From: a virus | Lineage: Duplodnaviria > Heunggongvirae > Uroviricota > Caudoviricetes | Strand: one strand, 5' to 3' | DNA length: 41,157 bases | Virus record (IMG/VR): IMGVR_UViG_2648501336_000006 | Coordinates: 1-41,157 of that record | Shown: positions 1,419 through 41,157 of the stretch, piece by piece | How the letters are laid out: each line of letters opens with the position of its first letter | How positions within the stretch are numbered: the stretch's first letter is position 1 | The notes under the pieces: model-generated | Database searches by the model: none | Seen by the model: only the letters and a program-made list of their open reading frames with translations | What the model was told of the DNA's origin: nothing | Translations under genes and position numbers: made by a program

Positions 1419-2489
1419 TTATTTGATTTCAATTTTGTCCCACTCCCTGCCTCTGTCATCACGATATTGTGATGCCATGGTGTCCGACTTATGCCCGAGA
1501 AGATGTTGAGCAAACTTATCGCTTATCTGCTTCTCATAGAGTCTTGCAGACAAACTGCGCAACTCGTGAAAGGTAGGCGGATCCCCTTCGAAGGAAAGAC
1601 CTGATGCTTTTCGTGCGCGCATAAAATACCTTGATACTGTGCCGGATGAAAGCGGTTCACGACGAGTAGATGCAATTATGGTTTCTCCACCAAGAATCTC
1701 TTTGCATTTATCAAGTGTTTCCTTCATTGATATCCCGAGAGTATCAACATGCAATGTTGTAGGGATGGCAATTTTTACACCTGTTTTGCTTTGCTCGACA
1801 TAAAGATATCCATCTACGATATCAGACCACTTCATTTCGCATAAATCACCAACTCGCTGCCCGGTAACAACAGCCAGTTCCATTGCAAGTCTGAGCCAAC
1901 ATGGTGATGATTCTGCTGCTTGATAAATTTTCAGGTATTCGTCAGCCGTAAGTCTTGATCTCCTTACCTCTGATTTTGCTGCGCGAGTGGCAGCGACCGG
2001 GTTTGTTGTTATATGGCCTTCAGCTATTGCCTCTCGGAATGCATCACTCAGTGTTGATCTGATTAACTTGGCTGACGCCGCCTTGCCCTCGTCTATGTAT
2101 CCATTGAGCATTGCCGCAATTTCTTTTGTGGTGATGTCTTCAAGTGGAGCATCAGGCAGACCCCTCCTTATTGCTTTAATTTTGCTCATGTAATTTATGA
2201 GAGTCTTCTGCTTGATTCCTCTGCTGGCGAGGATTTTTTCGTAGCGATCAAGCCATGAATGTAACGTAACAGAATTATCACTGTTGATTCTCGCTGTCAG
2301 AGGCTTGTGTTTGTGTCCTGAAAATAACTCAATGTTGGCCTGTATTGCTTCAGTGATTGCTATCCTCCTGTCTCGGCCTAATCCAAACTCTTTACCCGTC
2401 CTTGGGTCCCTGTAGCAGTAATATCCATTGTTTCTTATATAAAGGTTAGGGGGTAAATCCCGGCGCTCATGACTTCGCCTTCTTCCCAT
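1419..2489 (-). CDS. int: Lambda-type integrase (tyrosine site-specific recombinase), 356 aa
   Basis: ATG start confirmed; N-terminus MGRRRSHERRDLPPNLYIRNNGYYCYRDPRTGKEFGLG recognised as lambda Int; length identical to lambda Int; adjacent to attL P' arm. Confidence 0.97.
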   Translation of the reverse strand: MGRRRSHERRDLPPNLYIRNNGYYCYRDPRTGKEFGLGRDRRIAITEAIQANIELFSGHKHKPLTARINSDNSVTLHSWLDRYEKILASRGIKQKTLINYMSKIKAIRRGLPDAPLEDITTKEIAAMLNGYIDEGKAASAKLIRSTLSDAFREAIAEGHITTNPVAATRAAKSEVRRSRLTADEYLKIYQAAESSPCWLRLAMELAVVTGQRVGDLCEMKWSDIVDGYLYVEQSKTGVKIAIPTTLHVDTLGISMKETLDKCKEILGGETIIASTRREPLSSGTVSRYFMRARKASGLSFEGDPPTFHELRSLSARLYEKQISDKFAQHLLGHKSDTMASQYRDDRGREWDKIEIK

Positions 2490-31340: not shown

Positions 31341-33493
31341 GTTTACCCGAAGGATTTGTTCTCGATAATCAGCCTGATAACTCACAGCTTCCTGATGGTT
31401 TTGTGCTTGATTCCCAACCAGAACAGCAGCAATCTCCTTTGGTTTCACCAGAGGAAAATTCCCGACAGGAAAATGTTGTTAATAATGCTAACGGTTTCGA
31501 CCGTTTTATGTATGGCGTTCTCAGTGGATTGATGGATGTTGGTAAAGGTGTTGGCCTGTTTCAGGATATGACACCAGAAGAGCAAGCCGCAATTCAGTCT
31601 CTACAGCAGAAGTTAGCGGCAAAACCATCAACCGCACAAGATGTTGGTGAGTTCGTTGGACAAGCAGCGCCATTTGTTAGTGGCGGTGGGATTATTTCTC
31701 AGGTTCCCAAAGGGGCGGCAAGGCTGGCTGCCGCCGCAGGGCTTGGTGCGGTTGAAGGTGGTGTTGTTGCTAACGGAACCGGTGGCAATGTAACTACAGG
31801 GGCGACTATAGGTGCTGCCGCTGGTCCAATTGCTGAATTGGCATCTCCAGTGATTAGTAAAGCAGTCAGTGCGGTTACGAAGAGGTTTAGGCCTCCATCG
31901 GCAGAAATGTCTCAGGCATCTGAACTTAGTGGAATGGCGAAGGTTGCAACGAAAGCTACAGATGTGAATCCAATAACAGGAAACAGATCTGGTTTGAATG
32001 CTCTCGCGGAAGCTGTTTCACCAGATGATTCTGTGCTACAGGCCGCCCGCAATCTTGGGATGGAGGATGCCTTAACTCCCGGCATGTACTCCAGCAACCC
32101 TTCTTACCGCGCGTTTGAAAATGCTTTAGCTGCAACCCCAGGTAATAAACTGTTCCACGCACAGAGAGAGGCCATTAGTAGGCTTGGAGAGCAGGCAGAT
32201 AAATTTATTAATGATTTTGGTGGGAGCGTTGATAAGGACTTTATCAATCAAAAGGTAAAAAGCTCTTATGAGGAGTTAAGATCAAAACTGAAGCGCCAAG
32301 AAGACACTCTATACAATCAAATTAGAGCAAAAATTCCAACCAGAGCTACCGTAGATACCTCCCATACCACTAACGCCATTGAGGATATTGCAGATGATGT
32401 CGGTGGGCTAGAAAAACTAAAATCTCTATATCCTCAACTGTCAAAGACCTTGGAACAAATAGACCCAAACACCGCCCCGACTTATGGTCTTCTTGATGCA
32501 GTTCGACGGCAGGTTGGAAGGGCTCTTGGCAAAGAGATGGATAAAGGGCCATATAGCGGCATCGACGCTCGGCACCTTGGAATTCTTGAAAGCGCACTGA
32601 TACAAGATCAAGGAGCCGCTGCTGCCAAATATGGTGCAGAGGATACATGGAATTTAGCTAGAGAGATCGGGAGAAAGAGATTCGCAGTACAGGCAGCCGC
32701 CATTCAAAATCTTGGCAGAGACCTGGATAAAGGAATAGTGCCGCAATTGCAGCAAGCTATCGTCGACATGTCTCAAGGAAAGGGCGGTGACTTCCGTCGC
32801 CTAGTTTCAAATCTTCCTGATGACATGGTGCAACCAGCTGTTGCCACCGCAATGAATAGGGCTTTCACTACGTTCGCTAAATCTCCCGGGCAGTCACTCG
32901 GTGTTCCTGGATTTGTTAAGTGGTATGGAGGTCTATCAAGAAACAAATCAAATATGCAGGCATTGAGCCGGGCAATTGGCTATCCGGCTACGCGTAGGTT
33001 GAGAAACATCTATGAGGTGGCTTCTGGCATGCAAAGGGTGGGCAGCGAGAAGGTGTATTCCTCCTCTCAAATTGACCGGATGATGAATCAGTTCGCAGGA
33101 GAGAAGGGAATGCTTGGGCGTATATATGGAATAGGAAAAGACGTGGCTAAAGCAGAGGGGCTAACCACTGCCATCGGAGCGCCGGGAGCCGGTACGGCAG
33201 GAGTACTCTTTAGCCTACTCCGTTCTGGTAAAAACTCAAGAATGGCTGCCGCTGATGAATTAATAGCATCTCCGGCTTTTAAAAATCTCTCAAAAAGGAT
33301 TGCCGCAGGTCACGCCAGCACTCCAGCCTCTAGGAAATCGGTGGATGCTTCAATGAAGAAAGTGAAACCATATAGGGATTGGGTAAATACGCTATCAGCG
33401 GACGAGAAGAAAAATCTAGCCCGCGTTGGTATTGTCGCTTTTCTCAGTAGTAACGATTCTTTGCCCACAGAGCAACAAGCAGGGCAACAATAA
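31325..33493 (+). CDS. Ejection protein (gp16-like), 722 aa
   Basis: Position after gp20; large low-complexity protein; overlaps gp20 stop. Confidence 0.7.
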
Positions 33494-33538
33494 TCGAACC
33501 GACTGTTACCATATTAACCTCCCGATAGCCATGGATGG

Positions 33539-33838
33539 CTATTCTGACATCCTTTTTAATTTATTGTATGACTCTATAGAATCTGTGCACAACTTCATGA
33601 ACTCTTGAAGTGACATTCCTAGGCGAGAAATTTCCGTATTCAAAAAACGTTCAATAAATTCATCTCCGCCTGGCATCTGGGTTGCTTCTTGAAAAGCAAA
33701 CATTTGTTTAAATGTTCCACACATACCAGCAACTTTAGCTGTAACTAACATGTCGTTAGCAAATTTCAGATCCTTATCTTGCGATTGTGCAAGACCACTA
33801 ATTAGAAAACAGAATGCACCTATAACCCATCGCTTCAC
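33539..33838 (-). CDS. Small secreted protein (99 aa) with Sec signal peptide, antisense to the virion operon
   Basis: GTG start with GGAGG 5 nt upstream; signal peptide KRWVIGAFCFLISGLAQS-QD; AT-rich context. Confidence 0.55.
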   Translation of the reverse strand: MKRWVIGAFCFLISGLAQSQDKDLKFANDMLVTAKVAGMCGTFKQMFAFQEATQMPGGDEFIERFLNTEISRLGMSLQEFMKLCTDSIESYNKLKRMSE

Positions 33839-34219
33839 ACCAACCTCCAACCTCCTTAGTTTTGAGCAGGATACCAGATGATACTTTATTGGTGGAGTGG
33901 TGTGTGAAAACGTGTCAACGACAAACCATCCACAACTTGGACGAATGATTTAGCAAAAAGTGCTATTTTTGGTGTTTAGTGTCATAGAAAAGTGAATAGC
34001 TCACTTTTCAACATTGCATGAAACTTGCAGGAAATGTGACATTACCTTATAGGTAACTTCGGCGAAAATGCAGTAAATGTGAAACGTAATGATTTAAACG
34101 TGTCGAGAAAGTGGTTGTAAGTTAGCCTCTGAAGGATTGATGACAGCTTTGTTATGGTATTAAATGCAACTTGACACAGTTGTATACATAGCTGCGGCTA
34201 TCAAGATGGAGGTATGTTT

Positions 34220-34663
34220 ATGCTCACTTGTTTTGATGTCGCCGACTACTTCTTGGCGCATTGCGATGAAGAAAGTGGCGACATTATCTCTAACCTAAAA
34301 ATTCAGAAGTTGACGTATTATGCCCAAGGGTTTTCTCTGGTTCTTCTGGGTAAGCCGCTATTTAATGAGAAAATTGAAGCCTGGATGCATGGGCCAGTAG
34401 TTCCTGAATTGTATCGTAAATATAGGGACTGTGGTAACGGAGCTTTACCTGCGCCAGAAAACTTTGACGCTAAAAAATTCAGTGAAGATGAAATTGAATT
34501 GCTGGATGAGGTGTATAAAGTTTATGGTCAGTTTTCTGCCTGGAAACTGCGCAATATGACTCACGAAGAGCAGCCATGGAAAGATGCTTACATTGAGGGT
34601 GCGGTTAGCCAAGAAATCACACTTGATTCTATGAAAGGTTTTTTCAAAACGTTAATTAACTGA
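34220..34663 (+). CDS. Panacea (DUF4065)-like domain protein, putative antitoxin-type component, 147 aa
   Basis: Motifs KIQKLTYYAQGFSL...GKPLF.E.IEAWMHGPVVPELY recalled as typical of DUF4065/GepA/SocA-like proteins; GGAGG SD 7 nt upstream of ATG 34220. Confidence 0.55.
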   Translation: MLTCFDVADYFLAHCDEESGDIISNLKIQKLTYYAQGFSLVLLGKPLFNEKIEAWMHGPVVPELYRKYRDCGNGALPAPENFDAKKFSEDEIELLDEVYKVYGQFSAWKLRNMTHEEQPWKDAYIEGAVSQEITLDSMKGFFKTLIN

Positions 34664-34668
34664 CGTGT

Positions 34669-35091
34669 ATGTCTAGAGTTAAGGGAAGAATAAAACAGAG
34701 GGATAAAGAGAGCTCTGCTACTGTTGGCCTCTCTATCCATCACGAATCTCATGATGTAGACAAAAGTCCGCCTGTATTTTCTCTTAGATACCTACAAAAG
34801 GGGTATTGCCTGGATTGCTGCCAAAAGCATGAAAAGGCAGCATTTGCAGATAGGCTGTTCAGGTTAAGTCAGATGTCATGGGATGAGATACGAAAATCTG
34901 ATAAACACGGACTTGGGACGGAAAAAATTGCCAGAAACGCGATAAAGGCTCCGATTCCTAAGCATGTTACTCAAGATGTGGATTTCATTGCGTTCAGGTT
35001 TTGCTCTAAGGCACCTATGGTTGGTTATAAGATTGGAGCCACTTTTTATGTCTTATGGCTCGACAGGGAGTTCAAGCTATACAAGCACTAA
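34669..35091 (+). CDS. Unknown 140-aa basic protein, operon partner of the Panacea-like gene
   Basis: ATG 5 nt after the upstream stop; followed by a terminator; no domain recognised. Confidence 0.55.
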   Translation: MSRVKGRIKQRDKESSATVGLSIHHESHDVDKSPPVFSLRYLQKGYCLDCCQKHEKAAFADRLFRLSQMSWDEIRKSDKHGLGTEKIARNAIKAPIPKHVTQDVDFIAFRFCSKAPMVGYKIGATFYVLWLDREFKLYKH

Positions 35092-35095
35092 TAAA

Positions 35096-35122
35096 ACCCA
35101 CCGTCAGGTGGGTTTTTTATCT
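35096..35122 (+). terminator. Intrinsic terminator after the two-gene cargo operon (hairpin shared with convergent gene)
   Basis: ACCCACC-GTCA-GGTGGGT followed by TTTTTTAT. Confidence 0.75.
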
Positions 35123-35370
35123 TCTCCGTACATGCTGCTGAGAGTCTTAAGAAGAGCCTCCCTAAATTTTTCAGATTCTTGTTGAGCAAAACCTTCTATC
35201 GATCTTGGTGATTTTTCTTCATCAATAGCGGCTTGCAAGATCATAACTATTTCTGAATTTAATGAACGACCGTTTCTCGATGCCCTTATGGTCAAGTCGC
35301 GCTTGAGGCTATCTGGCATTCTTACGCTATATGGGGCTATGTCTCTAACCTTTGTTTTCATCGTTGCCAT
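35104..35370 (-). CDS. Ribbon-helix-helix (Arc/Mnt family) DNA-binding protein, 88 aa
   Basis: RMPDSLKRDLTIRASRNGRSLNSEIV motif (NGRS.NSEI) characteristic of Arc/Mnt RHH repressors. Confidence 0.7.
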   Translation of the reverse strand: MATMKTKVRDIAPYSVRMPDSLKRDLTIRASRNGRSLNSEIVMILQAAIDEEKSPRSIEGFAQQESEKFREALLKTLSSMYGEDKKPT

Positions 35371-35602
35371 ACATGCATTTCAACTTCTCAACATCATGCT
35401 CAAGATCTATCAATCGTGATGCTATAGTTGCAAGATCTAGTGCTTGAATGTGTTTGTTTTTTTCGGTCCATGCTTCAAGTGCTGCGACCATCTCAGCATT
35501 TAATGAACGAGAATTAGCCTCAGCCAGTTCAATAAGACGTTCCTTTATCTCTACAGGAAGCCTCAGATTCACTTGAGGGTTTTTGTACTTACGATCAGAC
35601 AT
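35345..35602 (-). CDS. Mnt-like ribbon-helix-helix repressor, 85 aa (positional mnt)
   Basis: NLRLPVEIKERLIELAEANSRSLNAEMV; divergent from the arc-ant promoter; overlaps downstream RHH gene by 26 nt. Confidence 0.7.
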   Translation of the reverse strand: MSDRKYKNPQVNLRLPVEIKERLIELAEANSRSLNAEMVAALEAWTEKNKHIQALDLATIASRLIDLEHDVEKLKCMYGNDENKG

Positions 35603-35648
35603 CGGCGCATCCTGAATAAATTTTTACCACAGGATATGTAGGTATCTA

Positions 35649-35677
35649 TTGACTATCAATGCGTACCTAAATACTAT
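35649..35677 (+). promoter_or_regulatory. Pant-like promoter (TTGACT-17-TACTAT) with flanking imperfect palindromes
   Basis: Hexamers at 35649-35654 and 35672-35677; repeated GCGTACC motifs nearby. Confidence 0.55.
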
Positions 35678-35707
35678 GTATGCGTACCACATACAACGGA
35701 GGACGCA

Positions 35708-35848
35708 ATGAAGGTAAAAACACTGCGTATGCCAGAGAAGTTAGAAAAAATCCTTGAAGAGAAAGCAAAGGAAGAGTGTCGCTCATTTAGCGCAGAAGTA
35801 ATTAAACGGGTGATGGACAGCCTGAAGAGAGAGGGGATAACGGTGTGA
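35708..35848 (+). CDS. Arc-like ribbon-helix-helix repressor, 46 aa
   Basis: Hand-translated MKVKTLRMPEKLEKILEEKAKEECRSFSAEVIKRVMDSLKREGITV; GGAGG SD 6 nt upstream; below ORF-track cutoff. Confidence 0.6.
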   Translation: MKVKTLRMPEKLEKILEEKAKEECRSFSAEVIKRVMDSLKREGITV

Positions 35849-36080
35849 TTCGCTTGGATGCAGTAGTCAAAGAGATTGCGATTACCATTTTAAGACCAAA
35901 TTTTGTTCATGGCGAATCATTTGGCACGAACGAAAAATTGAGAAGAGAAAGAGTATTCAGTGGCAAGCGCACGTTTTCAGAAGTGATGCTTGATGCGGCA
36001 AAGAAATCAAAACAGTGAAGCCCCAACTGCTGGAACAGTCAGGGCTTCGGTTGTCGGTAAATCCGTGGAGAAAAACCAAC

Positions 36081-36983
36081 ATGAATAGTATAGCAATTTT
36101 AGAAGCAGTGAACACCTCTTACGTACCATTCAACGGTCAGCAAATTATCACCGCCATGGCTGCCGGAGTTGCATATGTTGCGATGAAGCCAATCGTTGAA
36201 AACCTTGGAATGAGCTGGTCAACGCAGCAAACAAAACTCATGAAGCAGATTAGCAAATTCAACTGTGTTCATATGAACATGGTTGCCGCTGATGGAAAGC
36301 TTCGTAAGCTACTCTGCCTTCCTTTGAAGAAGTTAAATGGATGGCTGTTCAGCATCAACCCTGAGAAAGTTCGTGCTGACATCCGCGATAAACTGATTCA
36401 GTACCAGGAAGAATGCTTTACTGTGCTGCATGACTACTGGACAAAGGGAAAGGCAGAAAATACACGTAAGAAAACATCTGTTGATGACAGGACTCCGCTT
36501 CGTGATGCTGTAAATATGCTGGTCAGCAAAAAGCATCTAATGTACCCAGAAGCTTATGCAATGATTCATCAGCGTTTCAATGTGGAAAGTATTGAAGAGC
36601 TTGATGCATCTCAGATACCGCAAGCCGTAGAGTACATCCACAGGGTAGTGCTTGAAGGTGAGTTCATCGGCAAACAAGAGAAGAAAACCAACGAGCTTTC
36701 TGCAAAAGAAGCAAACAGCCTTGTATGGCTATGGGATTATGCCAACCGCTCACAGGCATTATTCCGCGAACTGTATCCGGCATTAAAACAAATTCAATCG
36801 AACTATTCCGGCAGATGTCATGACTGCGGTTATGAGTTCTCCCGTATTATCGATATAGCGAGAGACGTTTTAATTAATCACACACGAGATGTTGATATCA
36901 ATGAGCCAGACGGACCAACGAATCTTTCCGCATGGATGAGGCTTAAGAATAAAGAATTGCCGCCTTCTGTTCATCTGTATTAA
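36081..36983 (+). CDS. ant: Antirepressor Ant (P22 Ant type), 300 aa
   Basis: ORF track start is GTG; ATG at 36081 gives 300 aa, the P22 Ant length; N-terminus [22 protein letters not shown] recalled as P22 Ant. Confidence 0.8.
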
Positions 36984-37066
36984 TGACGCATCTGGCGGTG
37001 AAAAAAACCGCCAGTGTGCTGCTGGCGGCCTATGTCACACCCTTACTACCACATAAGGAATGCCTA

Positions 37067-37795
37067 ATGACTTTTAAGAATGTAGCAAACATCGGATCCG
37101 TTGTCACGGATAAAACCATTGACAGCCAGCGCCTGCTTGAGATGGTAAATCAGGCTCGTAGACAGTGCGGTGAGCCGGAGGTTCGTAATAACAAATTCAT
37201 CGAGAAAATTGAAGATGAATTGGATGGAGAGCACTACACAAAAAGTGTAGTGCAAAAAGCGAACAAAACTTCGATGGTTATCATTGAGATGTCAATCAAG
37301 CAAGCATTGCGAGTTGCCGCTCGCGAGTCAAAAGCCGTTCGCCGCTCACTGGTAGACCAACTTGAAAGTATGCAAGAAGCGCACATTAAAAGCGGTAAAT
37401 CAGCGAGTGGACTTGTTGAGTATCGTCAAGCGCGAACATTGAAAATGACGGTTGAAGCTGTTACCAATCTGTTCGATCTGATGCCAAATCTTGCGCCGGA
37501 AGCAAAGCAGACTGCTGCAGCAAGCATAATCAACCCGCTCGTTGGTTTTAATGCAATACCTCTTCCGGCAATAGAAGAGCATTACTACTCAGCAGGGGAG
37601 GTTGCAGAGCAGCTTGGAGTAACGGCCAACAAGATTGGTCGCATTGCTAACGCAAACAACCTCAAAACTGAGCAGTACGGGAAGTTCTTCCTGGATAAAT
37701 CTGCGCATTCCAGCAAACAGGTGGAAGCATTCCGCTACAATGAGGAAGGCGTTAAAGCACTACAACACCTGCTACATGGCTCAAATGTGGCGTAA
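37067..37795 (+). CDS. Hypothetical protein downstream of ant (242 aa)
   Basis: ATG at 37067 with AAGGAA SD; followed by a bidirectional terminator; no domain recognised. Confidence 0.5.
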   Translation: MTFKNVANIGSVVTDKTIDSQRLLEMVNQARRQCGEPEVRNNKFIEKIEDELDGEHYTKSVVQKANKTSMVIIEMSIKQALRVAARESKAVRRSLVDQLESMQEAHIKSGKSASGLVEYRQARTLKMTVEAVTNLFDLMPNLAPEAKQTAAASIINPLVGFNAIPLPAIEEHYYSAGEVAEQLGVTANKIGRIANANNLKTEQYGKFFLDKSAHSSKQVEAFRYNEEGVKALQHLLHGSNVA

Positions 37796-37814
37796 CATTT
37801 TATAATGAAAACTA

Positions 37815-37840
37815 AACCCGCTTAATCGCGGGTTTTTTCT
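37815..37840. terminator. Bidirectional terminator hairpin between the ant-region gene and the convergent Mnt-like gene
   Basis: ACCCGC-TTAATC-GCGGGT followed by TTTTTTCTTTCC on plus; A/T-rich on the other side. Confidence 0.65.
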
Positions 37841-38079
37841 TTCCTTAGAATTTCAGCCGCAACTTCTTTTACTCGTTCCGAGATTAATGAGGCCAGCCTC
37901 TCTTCTTCATCACGATACCCGCTTACAGGTGATGGTTTGGAGAGTGATTCTTCCATCGTAGCCACAATTTCGGAATTGATAGACCTGTTATTCATTTTTG
38001 CACGCTGCTTAATCTTAGCGTGCAACTCGTGTGTAAGCCTCAAGTGGAACTGCGCCTCATCGTATTTGCTGTACATCAT
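37822..38079 (-). CDS. Second Mnt-like ribbon-helix-helix repressor, 85 aa, divergent from the tailspike gene
   Basis: FHLRLTHELHAKIKQRAKMNNRSINSEIVATMEESLSKPSPVSGYRDEEERLA closely parallels P22 Mnt (RSMNSELLQIVQDALSKPSPVTGYRNDAERLA) as recalled. Confidence 0.8.
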   Translation of the reverse strand: MMYSKYDEAQFHLRLTHELHAKIKQRAKMNNRSINSEIVATMEESLSKPSPVSGYRDEEERLASLISERVKEVAAEILRKEKTRD

Positions 38080-38211
38080 CAATGCCTCACCAAATGGGTG
38101 GAATGGCATCGTAAAACCCACTGTACAAATCAACAATCGTACCGTTTCGGTATGTAACAAATGCCAACCGTAGCCATGCTGCGGCCATTCCTTGTATCTG
38201 GAGCAAATTAA

Positions 38212-41157
38212 ATGACAGACATTACAGCCAATGTTGTAGTGAGTATGCCTTCGCAACTCTTCACTATGGCGCGTTCTTTTAAAGCCGTAGCCAATGGCAA
38301 AATTTATATCGGAAAAATTGACACTGACCCGGTAAATCCTGAAAACCAGATTCAGGTTTATGTAGAGAACGAAGATGGATCTCACGTTCCTGTTTCTCAA
38401 CCAATCATCATTAACGCTGCTGGATATCCGGTATATAACGGACAGATTGCCAAATTCGTTACCGTGCAAGGCCATTCTATGGCTGTTTATGATGCGTATG
38501 GTGCGCAGCAGTTCTATTTTCCTAATGTGCTGAAGTATGATCCTGATCAGTTACGGCAGCAATTAGAAGACACAGATGGAGCGAATAAATACCCAAAACT
38601 TCAGATAGCAAGATGGAGAGACAGTTATGATGTAAGAGGTTGGGGGGCTATTGGTGATGGTGTTCATGATGACACATCAGCTCTATCAGAATTACTTTCT
38701 GTTGCAACAGGTGGTGAAAAGATAGATGGGCGAGGGCTTACTTTTAAAGTATCAACTCTTCCAGATGTCAGTCGATTTAAAAATGCTCGTTTTTTATTTG
38801 AGAGAATACCGGGTCAGCCTCTTTTTTATGCTTCTGAAGATTTTATCCAGGGAGAGTTATTTAAAATTACAGATACACCGTGGTACAACGCCTGGACGCA
38901 GGATAAAACGTTTGTATATGACAATGTCATCTATGCGCCTTTTATGGCTGGAGACCGCCATGGTGTAAATAACCTCCATGTTGCATGGGTTCGCTCAGGA
39001 GATGACGGGAAGACCTGGACAACGCCGGAATGGCTTACAGATTTACATGAAAACTATCCCACAGTTAACTATCACTGCATGAGTATGGGGGTTGTCAGAA
39101 ATCGCCTTTTTGCTGTAATTGAGACGCGGACCGTGAGCGGAAATAAACTGCAGGTTGCAGAGTTGTGGGATCGCCCAATGAGTCGCAGCCTTCGCGTTTA
39201 TGGTGGTATAACGAAAGCAGCAAATCAGCAAGTCGCTTATATTCGCATTACTGATCACGGATTATTTGCTGGTGATTTTGTCAACTTCTCAAACTCTGGT
39301 GTTACAGGTGTTACCGGGAATATGACGGTGACTACTGTCATTGATAAAAATACTTTTACAGTTACGACGCAAAATACCCAGGATGTGGATCAGAATAACG
39401 AGGGTAGATACTGGAGTTTTGGTACATCATTTCACTCGTCACCATGGAGAAAAACCAGTCTTGGAACTATTCCTTCTTTTGTTGACGGAAGCACTCCTGT
39501 TACTGAGATTCACAGTTTTGCGACGATTAGCGATAACAGTTTTGCTGTTGGCTACCATAATGGTGATATTGGTCCACGCGAGCTTGGGATACTCTATTTC
39601 TCTGATGCTTTCGGTTCTCCTGGTAGCTTTGTTCGCAGACGCATACCTGTAGAATATGAGGCGAATGCATCTGAGCCATGTGTAAAATATTATGATGGCA
39701 TTCTGTATCTGACGACCAGGGGGACATTAAGTACTCAACCCGGTAGTTCATTGCACAGAAGCTCTGATTTAGGTACATCATGGAATTCTCTTCGCTTCCC
39801 AAATAATGTTCATCACTCAAACCTTCCTTTTGCCAAAGTTGGCGATGAGCTGATTATTTTTGGCAGTGAGCGCGCATTTGGTGAGTGGGAAGGAGGAGAA
39901 CCTGATAACCGTTATGCAGGAAATTATCCAAGAACATTTATGACCAGAGTTAACGTCAATGAGTGGAGTCTGGATAATGTAGAGTGGGTTAATGTTACTG
40001 ATCAGATTTATCAGGGCGGAATAGTTAACTCTGCGGTTGGTGTTGGTTCAGTTTGTATCAAAGACAACTGGCTGTACTACATTTTCGGTGGGGAAGACTT
40101 TCTAAACCCATGGAGCATAGGGGATAACAACAGAAAATATCCTTATGTTCACGATGGTCACCCGGCTGATTTGTATTGTTTCAGGGTGAAAATTAAACAG
40201 GAAGAATTTGTTTCAAGGGATTTTGTCTACGGAGCCACTCCTAACAGAACGCTTCCTACTTTTATGTCGACGTCAGGCGTGAGGACGGTTCCTGTACCCG
40301 TTGATTTCACAGATGATGTTGCCGTCCAGTCACTGACTGTCCATGCCGGTACATCAGGACAAGTTCGCGCGGAAGTCAAACTTGAGGGTAATTACGCCAT
40401 TATTGCGAAGAAAGTACCGTCTGATGATGTTACCGCTCAGAGATTAATCGTTAGCGGCGGTGAAACAACGTCTTCAGCAGATGGTGCAATGATAACGTTG
40501 CATGGTTCCGGAAGCAGTACTCCACGTCGCGCGGTATATAACGCACTCGAACATCTTTTTGAGAACGGAGATGTTAAACCTTATCTTGATAATGTAAATG
40601 CTCTTGGTGGTCCGGGAAACAGGTTCTCGACAGTTTATCTTGGCTCCAATCCTGTGGTTACCAGTGACGGAACATTAAAGACAGAGCCGGTCTCTCCTGA
40701 CGAAGCATTGCTGGATGCCTGGGGTGACGTCAGGTATATCGCTTATAAATGGCTGAACGCTGTCGCTATAAAGGGAGAAGAAGGGGCGAGGATACATCAT
40801 GGTGTAATCGCGCAGCAACTTCGTGATGTTCTTATTTCTCACGGACTCATGGAAGAAGAAAGCACAACATGCCGCTATGCCTTTCTTTGCTATGACGATT
40901 ATCCCGCAGTATATGATGACGTCATTACTGGCCAAAGGGAAATTCCGCTGACTGATAATGACGGGAGCATCATTGTTGATGAGGATGATAATCCAGTGAT
41001 GGTAATGGAAGACATCATTGAGCGCGTTGAAATAACGCCAGCAGGATCTAGATGGGGAGTCAGACCTGATCTCTTATTCTATATCGAGGCAGCATGGCAG
41101 CGCAGAGAAATAGAGAGAATAAAAGCTAGGTTAGACTTAATAGAAGGGAAGCACTAA
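38212..41157 (+). CDS. Tailspike: P22-type head-binding domain + endosialidase-like beta-propeller + C-terminal intramolecular chaperone domain, 981 aa
   Basis: N-terminus [43 protein letters not shown] matches P22 gp9 head-binding domain; Asp-boxes SGDDGKTW and SSDLGTSW; C-terminal SDGTLK (Ser818/Lys823) resembles the autoproteolytic S/K dyad of endosialidase chaperone domains. Confidence 0.85.

Follow-up and report, generated by a model that had tools for sequence, protein, structure and literature searches.

The prophage and its tailspike gene

The window (the whole 41,157-nt stretch of DNA analyzed here) is a mosaic prophage of the P22-like (Lederbergvirus) type, integrated into the chromosome of an E. 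coli host. It matches the genomes of CUS-3, Kapi1, and other Lederbergvirus members in the portal, terminase, scaffold, coat, DNA-stabilization, head-completion, needle, and ejection genes. The features that frame the tailspike, which is the last gene of the window, are the following.

1-1284: ybhC-consistent ORF of the pectinesterase family, 427 aa, at the left end of the window
1419-2489: lambda-type integrase with an Arm DNA-binding domain
36015-36983: antirepressor gene ant, just upstream of the tailspike
About 37822-38079, minus strand: Arc/Mnt-type repressor gene (mnt), just upstream of the tailspike
38167-38211, plus strand: 45-nt leader preceding the tailspike ATG, the start of a DNA module common to three relatives
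38212-41157, plus strand: endosialidase tailspike precursor gene (siaK1 type), 981 aa and 109.2 kDa, assigned by Pfam and by identity to CUS-3

A look-up of the exact protein recovered four loci that agree with the final 8946 nt of the window without a single mismatch. In these identical loci, the order beyond the neighboring neuO gene (see below) is ybhB, an IS605-type tnpB, bioA, and bioB. The ybhC flank at the left of the window, together with the continuation into ybhB and bioA, places the prophage at the lambda attachment site. It thus sits between ybhC and ybhB/bioA and has a lambda-type integrase, whereas CUS-3 integrates at argW. The tailspike is the final late gene of this P22-like genome and lies beside the immI region (ant/mnt). 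An ORF of 270 aa is also found among the genes just upstream, with ant and the Arc/Mnt-type gene. The list of open reading frames included, in addition, a minus-strand ORF of 217 aa (37822-38475) running over the start of the tailspike, of which only aa 140 to 185 match Arc/Mnt. Since the gene calls in the identical loci give 85 to 95 aa at this position, the overlap with the tailspike is an artifact of ORF listing.

The tailspike ORF is 981 codons long, and its stop codon is the final triplet of the window. Its product aligns without gaps with SiaK1 of CUS-3 (ABQ88383/CAJ29292), with 973 of 981 residues identical (99.2%), and the two are alike in length, in domain order, and in the 45-nt leader upstream. 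The eight substitutions that separate them (aa 9, 43, 207, 480, 767, 807, 832, and 911) are conservative or peripheral, and none falls on any of the functional residues checked. In nucleotide sequence, identity is 98.9% with CUS-3 siaK1 and 99.4% with the tailspike gene of vB_EcoP-720R6. The GenBank record of CUS-3 tags SiaK1 with “endo-alpha-sialidase activity” (Evidence IDA, PMID 16689790). The computed mass of the precursor equals the 109 kDa given for the CUS-3 enzyme in a review (PMC5380687), which supports its reading as a CUS-3-type endosialidase.

Being part of an integrated prophage (ybhC at 1-1284, integrase at 1419-2489), the gene could belong to a decaying remnant whose product has lost its function both as an enzyme and as a component of the virion, and copies of the tailspike disrupted by insertion sequences do occur in the genomes NCTC11151 and M15. 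However, the 981-codon frame is intact here, and the few differences from SiaK1 spare the functional residues. The catalytic and cleavage residues checked are all conserved, and the P22-like gene set is full from the integrase to the tailspike. The identical protein also recurs across many independent assemblies (in a public assembly index, contigs from 178 blocks encode the exact 981 aa). We regard decay as very improbable.

Domain architecture and conserved residues

The protein can be divided along its whole length into known domains, all of them on the plus strand.

38212-38550: P22 gp9-type head-binding (particle-attachment) domain, aa 1-113 (Pfam PF09008, Head_binding, E=4.8e-67)
38647-38847: endosialidase N-terminal extension, aa 146-212 (PF12218, End_N_terminal, E=8.8e-37)
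38848-40197: catalytic six-bladed beta-propeller, aa 213-662 (PF12217, End_beta_propel, E=3e-233)
38995-39018: Asp-box 1, SGDDGKTW, aa 262-269, aligned with SGDDGQTW of endoNF (aa 362)
39181-39429: beta-barrel (polysialic acid binding) inserted in the propeller, aa 324-406 (PF12195, End_beta_barrel, E=1.2e-46)
39760-39783: Asp-box 2, SSDLGTSW, aa 517-524, aligned with SRDIGQTW of endoNF (aa 610)
40198-40662: stalk (triple beta-helix/beta-prism), aa 663-817 (PF12219, End_tail_spike, E=7.4e-78)
40663-41154: C-terminal intramolecular chaperone, a predicted self-cleaving domain, aa 818-981 (PF13884 and PDB 3gw6)

All six Pfam families scored far over their curated cutoffs, and the resulting architecture is complete, with neither gaps nor conflicts. 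The four endosialidase families (PF12218, PF12217, PF12195, and PF12219) were matched over the full length of their models, and Peptidase_S74 (PF13884) covered aa 818 to 878 with 41.6 bits against a cutoff of 22 (E=1.6e-10). The domain matches are not due to chance. The search of solved structures gave the same picture, with aa 1 to 118 and 145 to 979 covered at 56 to 70% identity.

The sequence-only reading had described the tailspike as a chimera with a P22 gp9-type head-binding N terminus, and this description holds. Besides the PF09008 match, structures of the P22 and Sf6 tailspikes match aa 1 to 118 with E values from 1e-45 to 1e-65 (1lkt, 2vky, 2xc1, and 8tvr from P22, and 7sg7, with the molecule name “Gene 14 protein”). 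Pfam, structures, and alignment place the joint with the endosialidase body near aa 113-114 (..KYDPDQ|LRQQL..). Similarity to P22-type tailspikes is found before this junction, and identity to K1F gp17 (endoNF) and to phi92 gp143 starts only past it. Together with the head-binding domain, the protein has the P22-like context of virion genes in common with P22 gp9 and the Sf6 tailspike. Beyond YDPDQ, however, those tailspikes have a right-handed beta-helix endorhamnosidase with no cleaved chaperone, and the window protein has an endosialidase and an S74 domain.

The expected similarity of the central domain to endosialidases was equally clear, not only from the near identity to SiaK1 but also from the endoNF structures 1v0e and 3gvl, which match aa 145 to 817 at E=0. 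With endoNF (K1F gp17), identity is 70% over the propeller plus barrel and 56% in both the stalk and the chaperone domain, and the two proteins agree in all catalytic residues, in the two Asp-boxes, and in the T|S...K motif of the cleavage site. They differ by a 7-residue insertion after aa 422 of the window protein (FVDGSTP), by an 8-residue insertion in its chaperone domain, and by the N terminus, T7 fiber-like in K1F and P22 gp9-like here. Both K1F gp17 and phi92 gp143, which have the body in common with the window protein, carry N termini different from its own. The exchange of modules among CUS-3, P22/Sf6/HK620, and K1F is an established example, for which the review cites Stummeyer et al. 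2006 (PMC5380687).

Functional residues were mapped by aligning the window protein with CUS-3 SiaK1, K1F gp17, and phi92 gp143. Two sialidase Asp-boxes had been proposed around 38990-39015 and 39750-39775; both are present, although these positions are 5 to 10 nt too low. They are the only matches to S-x-D-x-G-x-x-[WFY] in the protein, and both fall column for column on the Asp-boxes of endoNF. Five endoNF residues, H350, R549, E581, R596, and R647, correspond to H250, R456, E488, R503, and R554, all conserved; deep mutational scanning of K1F found these five highly intolerant to substitution (PMC12632334). Also conserved are the endoNF residues Q330, D331, H527, S528, K585, and N699, which the scan highlights as conserved functional hotspots. 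With 99.2% identity to the assayed CUS-3 SiaK1, the window protein would be expected to cleave alpha-2,8-polysialic acid. In the stalk, R837, S848, and Q853 belong to a polysialic acid-binding site of endoNF; the position aligned to Q853 is Met in the window protein and also in CUS-3, a difference that counts against the endosialidase reading.

At the C terminus, the motif S-D-G-T-L-K (aa 818 to 823) had been interpreted as the dyad motif of endosialidase chaperone domains. The alignment agrees, with S818 on S911 and K823 on K916 of endoNF, the dyad also aligned in phi92 and CUS-3, and the Peptidase_S74 model starting at aa 818. The numbers given for this region were accurate too: the Ser codon (AGT) is at 40663-40665, exactly 817 aa lie ahead of it, and the domain of “about 160 aa” has 164 counted from the Ser. 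S818 is the predicted nucleophile, K823 (codon at 40678-40680) the predicted base, and T817 the predicted P1 residue. The K1F record annotates a mature gp17* of residues 2-910 and an intramolecular chaperone domain at 911-1064. The annotated boundaries T910|S911 in K1F and T756|S757 in phi92 gp143 both align to T817|S818. In addition, the mature endoNF chains in the crystals 1v0e and 3gvl terminate at the residue aligned to T817, and 3gw6, a construct of the endoNF stalk plus chaperone, matches aa 698 to 979 (E=4.4e-95). From the near identity to SiaK1, the conservation of the key residues, and the way mature peptides are annotated in K1F and phi92, we infer that this protein would also cleave itself. 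The predicted products are a mature spike of 90.5 kDa (817 aa, or 816 if Met1 is removed) and a fragment of 18.7 kDa. In proteins of this type, the Ser/Lys dyad gains cleavage competence only after folding and trimerization (PMC3742443).

The C-terminal domain might instead stay on the mature spike and serve there in receptor binding or as a lectin, since some authors assign receptor recognition to the C-terminal domains of tailspikes in general (PMC5380687). Against such retention, Ser818 and Lys823 occupy the very positions of the dyad in endoNF, where the S74 model also begins, and according to the mature peptides annotated for K1F and phi92 the domain is released at the aligned bond, so that we give it hardly any credence. 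The Peptidase S74/intramolecular chaperone auto-processing (ICA) domains of phi92 gp143, T5 pb1, the GA-1 neck appendage, and the eukaryotic MYRF have in common with this one the Ser-x4-Lys dyad at the domain start and the placement right behind a trimeric beta-helical stalk. The domain is a typical member of the endosialidase type, without unusual features.

A tailspike module shared with other phages

Pairwise blastn comparisons with CUS-3, vB_EcoP-720R6, and the prophage of E. coli EC931 showed that homology begins abruptly at 38167, i.e., 45 nt upstream of the ATG, and extends to 41157 with 98.9 to 99.3% identity. In CUS-3, this leader stretch lies within the annotated “bsq1 boundary sequence.” The tailspike DNA from 38167 onwards is therefore a module shared among otherwise different phages. 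The rest of the genome sets the prophage apart from CUS-3, whose immI arrangement is unlike that of the window and whose DNA covers only 50 to 60% of it. The phage is not CUS-3 itself but a CUS-3-like mosaic relative with the same tailspike-neuO module.

The second gene of this module probably lies past the end of the window. In two of the four identical loci (L007 and L009), an ORF for a hexapeptide-repeat acyltransferase begins 146 nt past the tailspike, and it bears a perfect array of AAGACTC-type heptanucleotides, by which we identify it as neuO, the polysialic acid O-acetyltransferase gene. The array begins 157 nt past the tailspike stop codon in the identical loci. The gene is full length in L007 (242 aa) and truncated in L009 (111 aa), whose array has one extra unit. 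A search of the whole 41,157-nt window found no AAGACTC repeat array of neuO, as the window stops at the stop codon of the tailspike; this absence does not count as evidence against neuO. Probably, this prophage too has neuO, the gene of a phase-variable capsule O-acetyltransferase, directly beyond the window.

Given the abrupt start of the homology 45 nt upstream of the ATG, and the carriage of the module by a mosaic prophage at the lambda attachment site instead of the argW-integrating CUS-3, siaK1-neuO might be a cassette that moves between otherwise different P22-like prophages. The eight substitutions, for their part, could tune the enzyme toward O-acetylated polysialic acid. We put both ideas forward as speculation, rather less probable than their opposite.

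Host capsule and role of the tailspike

The tailspike had also been read as a sign of a host that is, or is related to, a K1-capsulated E. coli. We examined this by set arithmetic over 5426 complete E. coli genomes, using as queries the endosialidase-specific part of the tailspike (38700-41157) and neuS from the kps locus of UTI89. The endosialidase part was found in 194 genomes, neuS in 329, and either of them (concatenated query) in 330. This means that 193 of the 194 endosialidase carriers also have neuS, compared with 6.1% of all the genomes (Fisher one-sided P of about 2e-263), a result that bears out the relation to K1 hosts. Conversely, 59% of the neuS-positive genomes carry the endosialidase. 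The single tailspike carrier without neuS indicates that the prophage can outlive the capsule. The window itself contains no kps locus. It is well supported that the host is K1-capsulated, or was so very recently.

The enzyme could also be directed at another sialic acid polymer, such as the K92 polymer with alternating alpha-2,8 and alpha-2,9 linkages, in which case the host need not be K1. According to its annotation, the phi92 endosialidase, ca. 60% identical to the window protein, cleaves K1 as well as K92 polymers, and 14 of the 329 neuS matches reach no more than 80 to 90% identity to the UTI89 gene and may be K92-type. The large majority of the neuS matches (311 of 329), however, show 99% identity or more to the K1 gene of UTI89, and siaK1 records that closely match the window gene come from many isolates labeled serovar K1. 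The protein is 99.2% identical to the enzyme of CUS-3, a phage that originates from the K1 strain RS218. Another target in place of K1 thus appears most unlikely, and any K92 activity would be an addition to the K1 specificity, not a replacement.

The domain architecture, the near identity to SiaK1, the conserved residues, the P22-like context, and the co-occurrence with neuS all lead to the same reading. We are highly confident that the gene is the tailspike of a CUS-3-like, P22-like temperate K1 phage, made of a head-binding domain, an endosialidase, and a chaperone that removes itself. Judging by its sequence, this allele is likely to be enzymatically active, to self-cleave, and to support infection. 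In the proposed mechanism, aa 1 to 113 would fix the trimer onto a P22-type tail, and aa 146 to 817 would constitute the endo-alpha-2,8-sialidase (GH58), a beta-propeller with an inserted beta-barrel followed by the stalk. The enzyme would bind and depolymerize the polysialic acid capsule, allowing the virion to reach the outer membrane. The last part, aa 818 to 981, would act as an intramolecular chaperone that drives trimerization and the folding of the stalk and would then remove itself, with the Ser818/Lys823 dyad cutting between T817 and S818.

Most of this is already known. The chimera, the endosialidase activity, the K1 specificity, the self-cleaving chaperone, and the link with neuO have been published for CUS-3 and endoNF, and the tailspike SiaK1 of CUS-3 was reportedly described by Stummeyer et al. 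in 2006 and King et al. in 2007. Since 2005-2010, the architecture, the enzyme mechanism, and the chaperone that cleaves itself have served as textbook examples of how tailspikes exchange modules. Mildly new is only the carrier of this copy, a mosaic relative that integrates at the lambda attachment site in place of CUS-3 itself, and similar records already exist (720R6 and EC931). The finding makes no open question newly testable and is of practical rather than conceptual value: the tailspike reliably marks an E. coli genome as neuS-positive (193/194), implying that the host of this prophage almost certainly belongs to a K1 lineage of extraintestinal pathogenic E. coli.

Integration site and the region upstream of the tailspike

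The left end of the window, within positions 1-2489, carries two features:
window start, minus strand: pectinesterase-family ORF of 427 aa, consistent with ybhC
after that ORF: integrase of the lambda type that carries an Arm DNA-binding domain
The presence of both places this P22-like prophage in the lambda attB region, in the order ybhC / prophage / ybhB-bioA, whereas CUS-3, the E. coli K1 prophage with a nearly identical tailspike, is located at argW.

Further along the prophage, several small ORFs precede the tailspike (38212-41157, plus strand):
34214-35091: SocA/Panacea antitoxin-domain protein (149 aa, E=2e-24), followed by a 140-aa ORF
36983-37795: ORF of 270 aa, between the antirepressor gene ant and the repressor gene mnt
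37822-38475, minus strand: mechanically listed ORF of 217 aa, overlapping the tailspike start
The antitoxin-domain gene and the 140-aa ORF are 5 nt apart, and the latter had no Pfam match. In this part of the prophage, the immI/sieA region, the two may constitute a pair that functions in superinfection exclusion or as a toxin-antitoxin system. The 270-aa ORF likewise had no match in Pfam, and the equivalent position in CUS-3 lacks it. The 217-aa ORF was rejected as a real gene, being over-extended, with an Arc/Mnt match limited to aa 140-185. Gene calls in identical loci give a product of 85-95 aa, and the true mnt-like gene is located at ca. 37822-38079 (minus strand), with a divergent intergenic region of ca. 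130 nt between it and the tailspike.

neuO downstream of the tailspike

Two public-assembly loci, L007 and L009, are identical to window 32212-41157 and extend past its end, where they carry neuO, a hexapeptide-repeat O-acetyltransferase gene:
L007, 9092-9820: neuO, product of 242 aa
L009, 9103-9827: neuO, product of 111 aa
In both, the gene starts 146 nt 3' of the tailspike and the AAGACTC heptanucleotide array is perfect, with one additional unit in L009. neuO appears to be phase-ON in L007 and phase-OFF in L009.

Endosialidase genes in other E. coli genomes

Another class of genes in E. coli is annotated as [quoted passage not shown] (e.g., in IAI39, BCE049, phage vB_EcoP_ZX5 and Phi05_2388 B). 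These genes had ca. 99% DNA identity to the tailspike only over the core, which spans 38733-41125 of the window and nt 34-2426 of the query (38700-41157). Since their N- and C-terminal ends differ from those of the window tailspike, the same endosialidase core is held by another carrier element. Up to four copies or places occur in some genomes.

Interrupted tailspike homologues were found in two strains:
E. coli NCTC11151, NZ_LR134031.1, 1574126-1577896
E. coli M15, NZ_CP185789.1, 170317-173840
The genes are broken by an IS3-family or IS903B element, which shows that some tailspike copies are undergoing inactivation.
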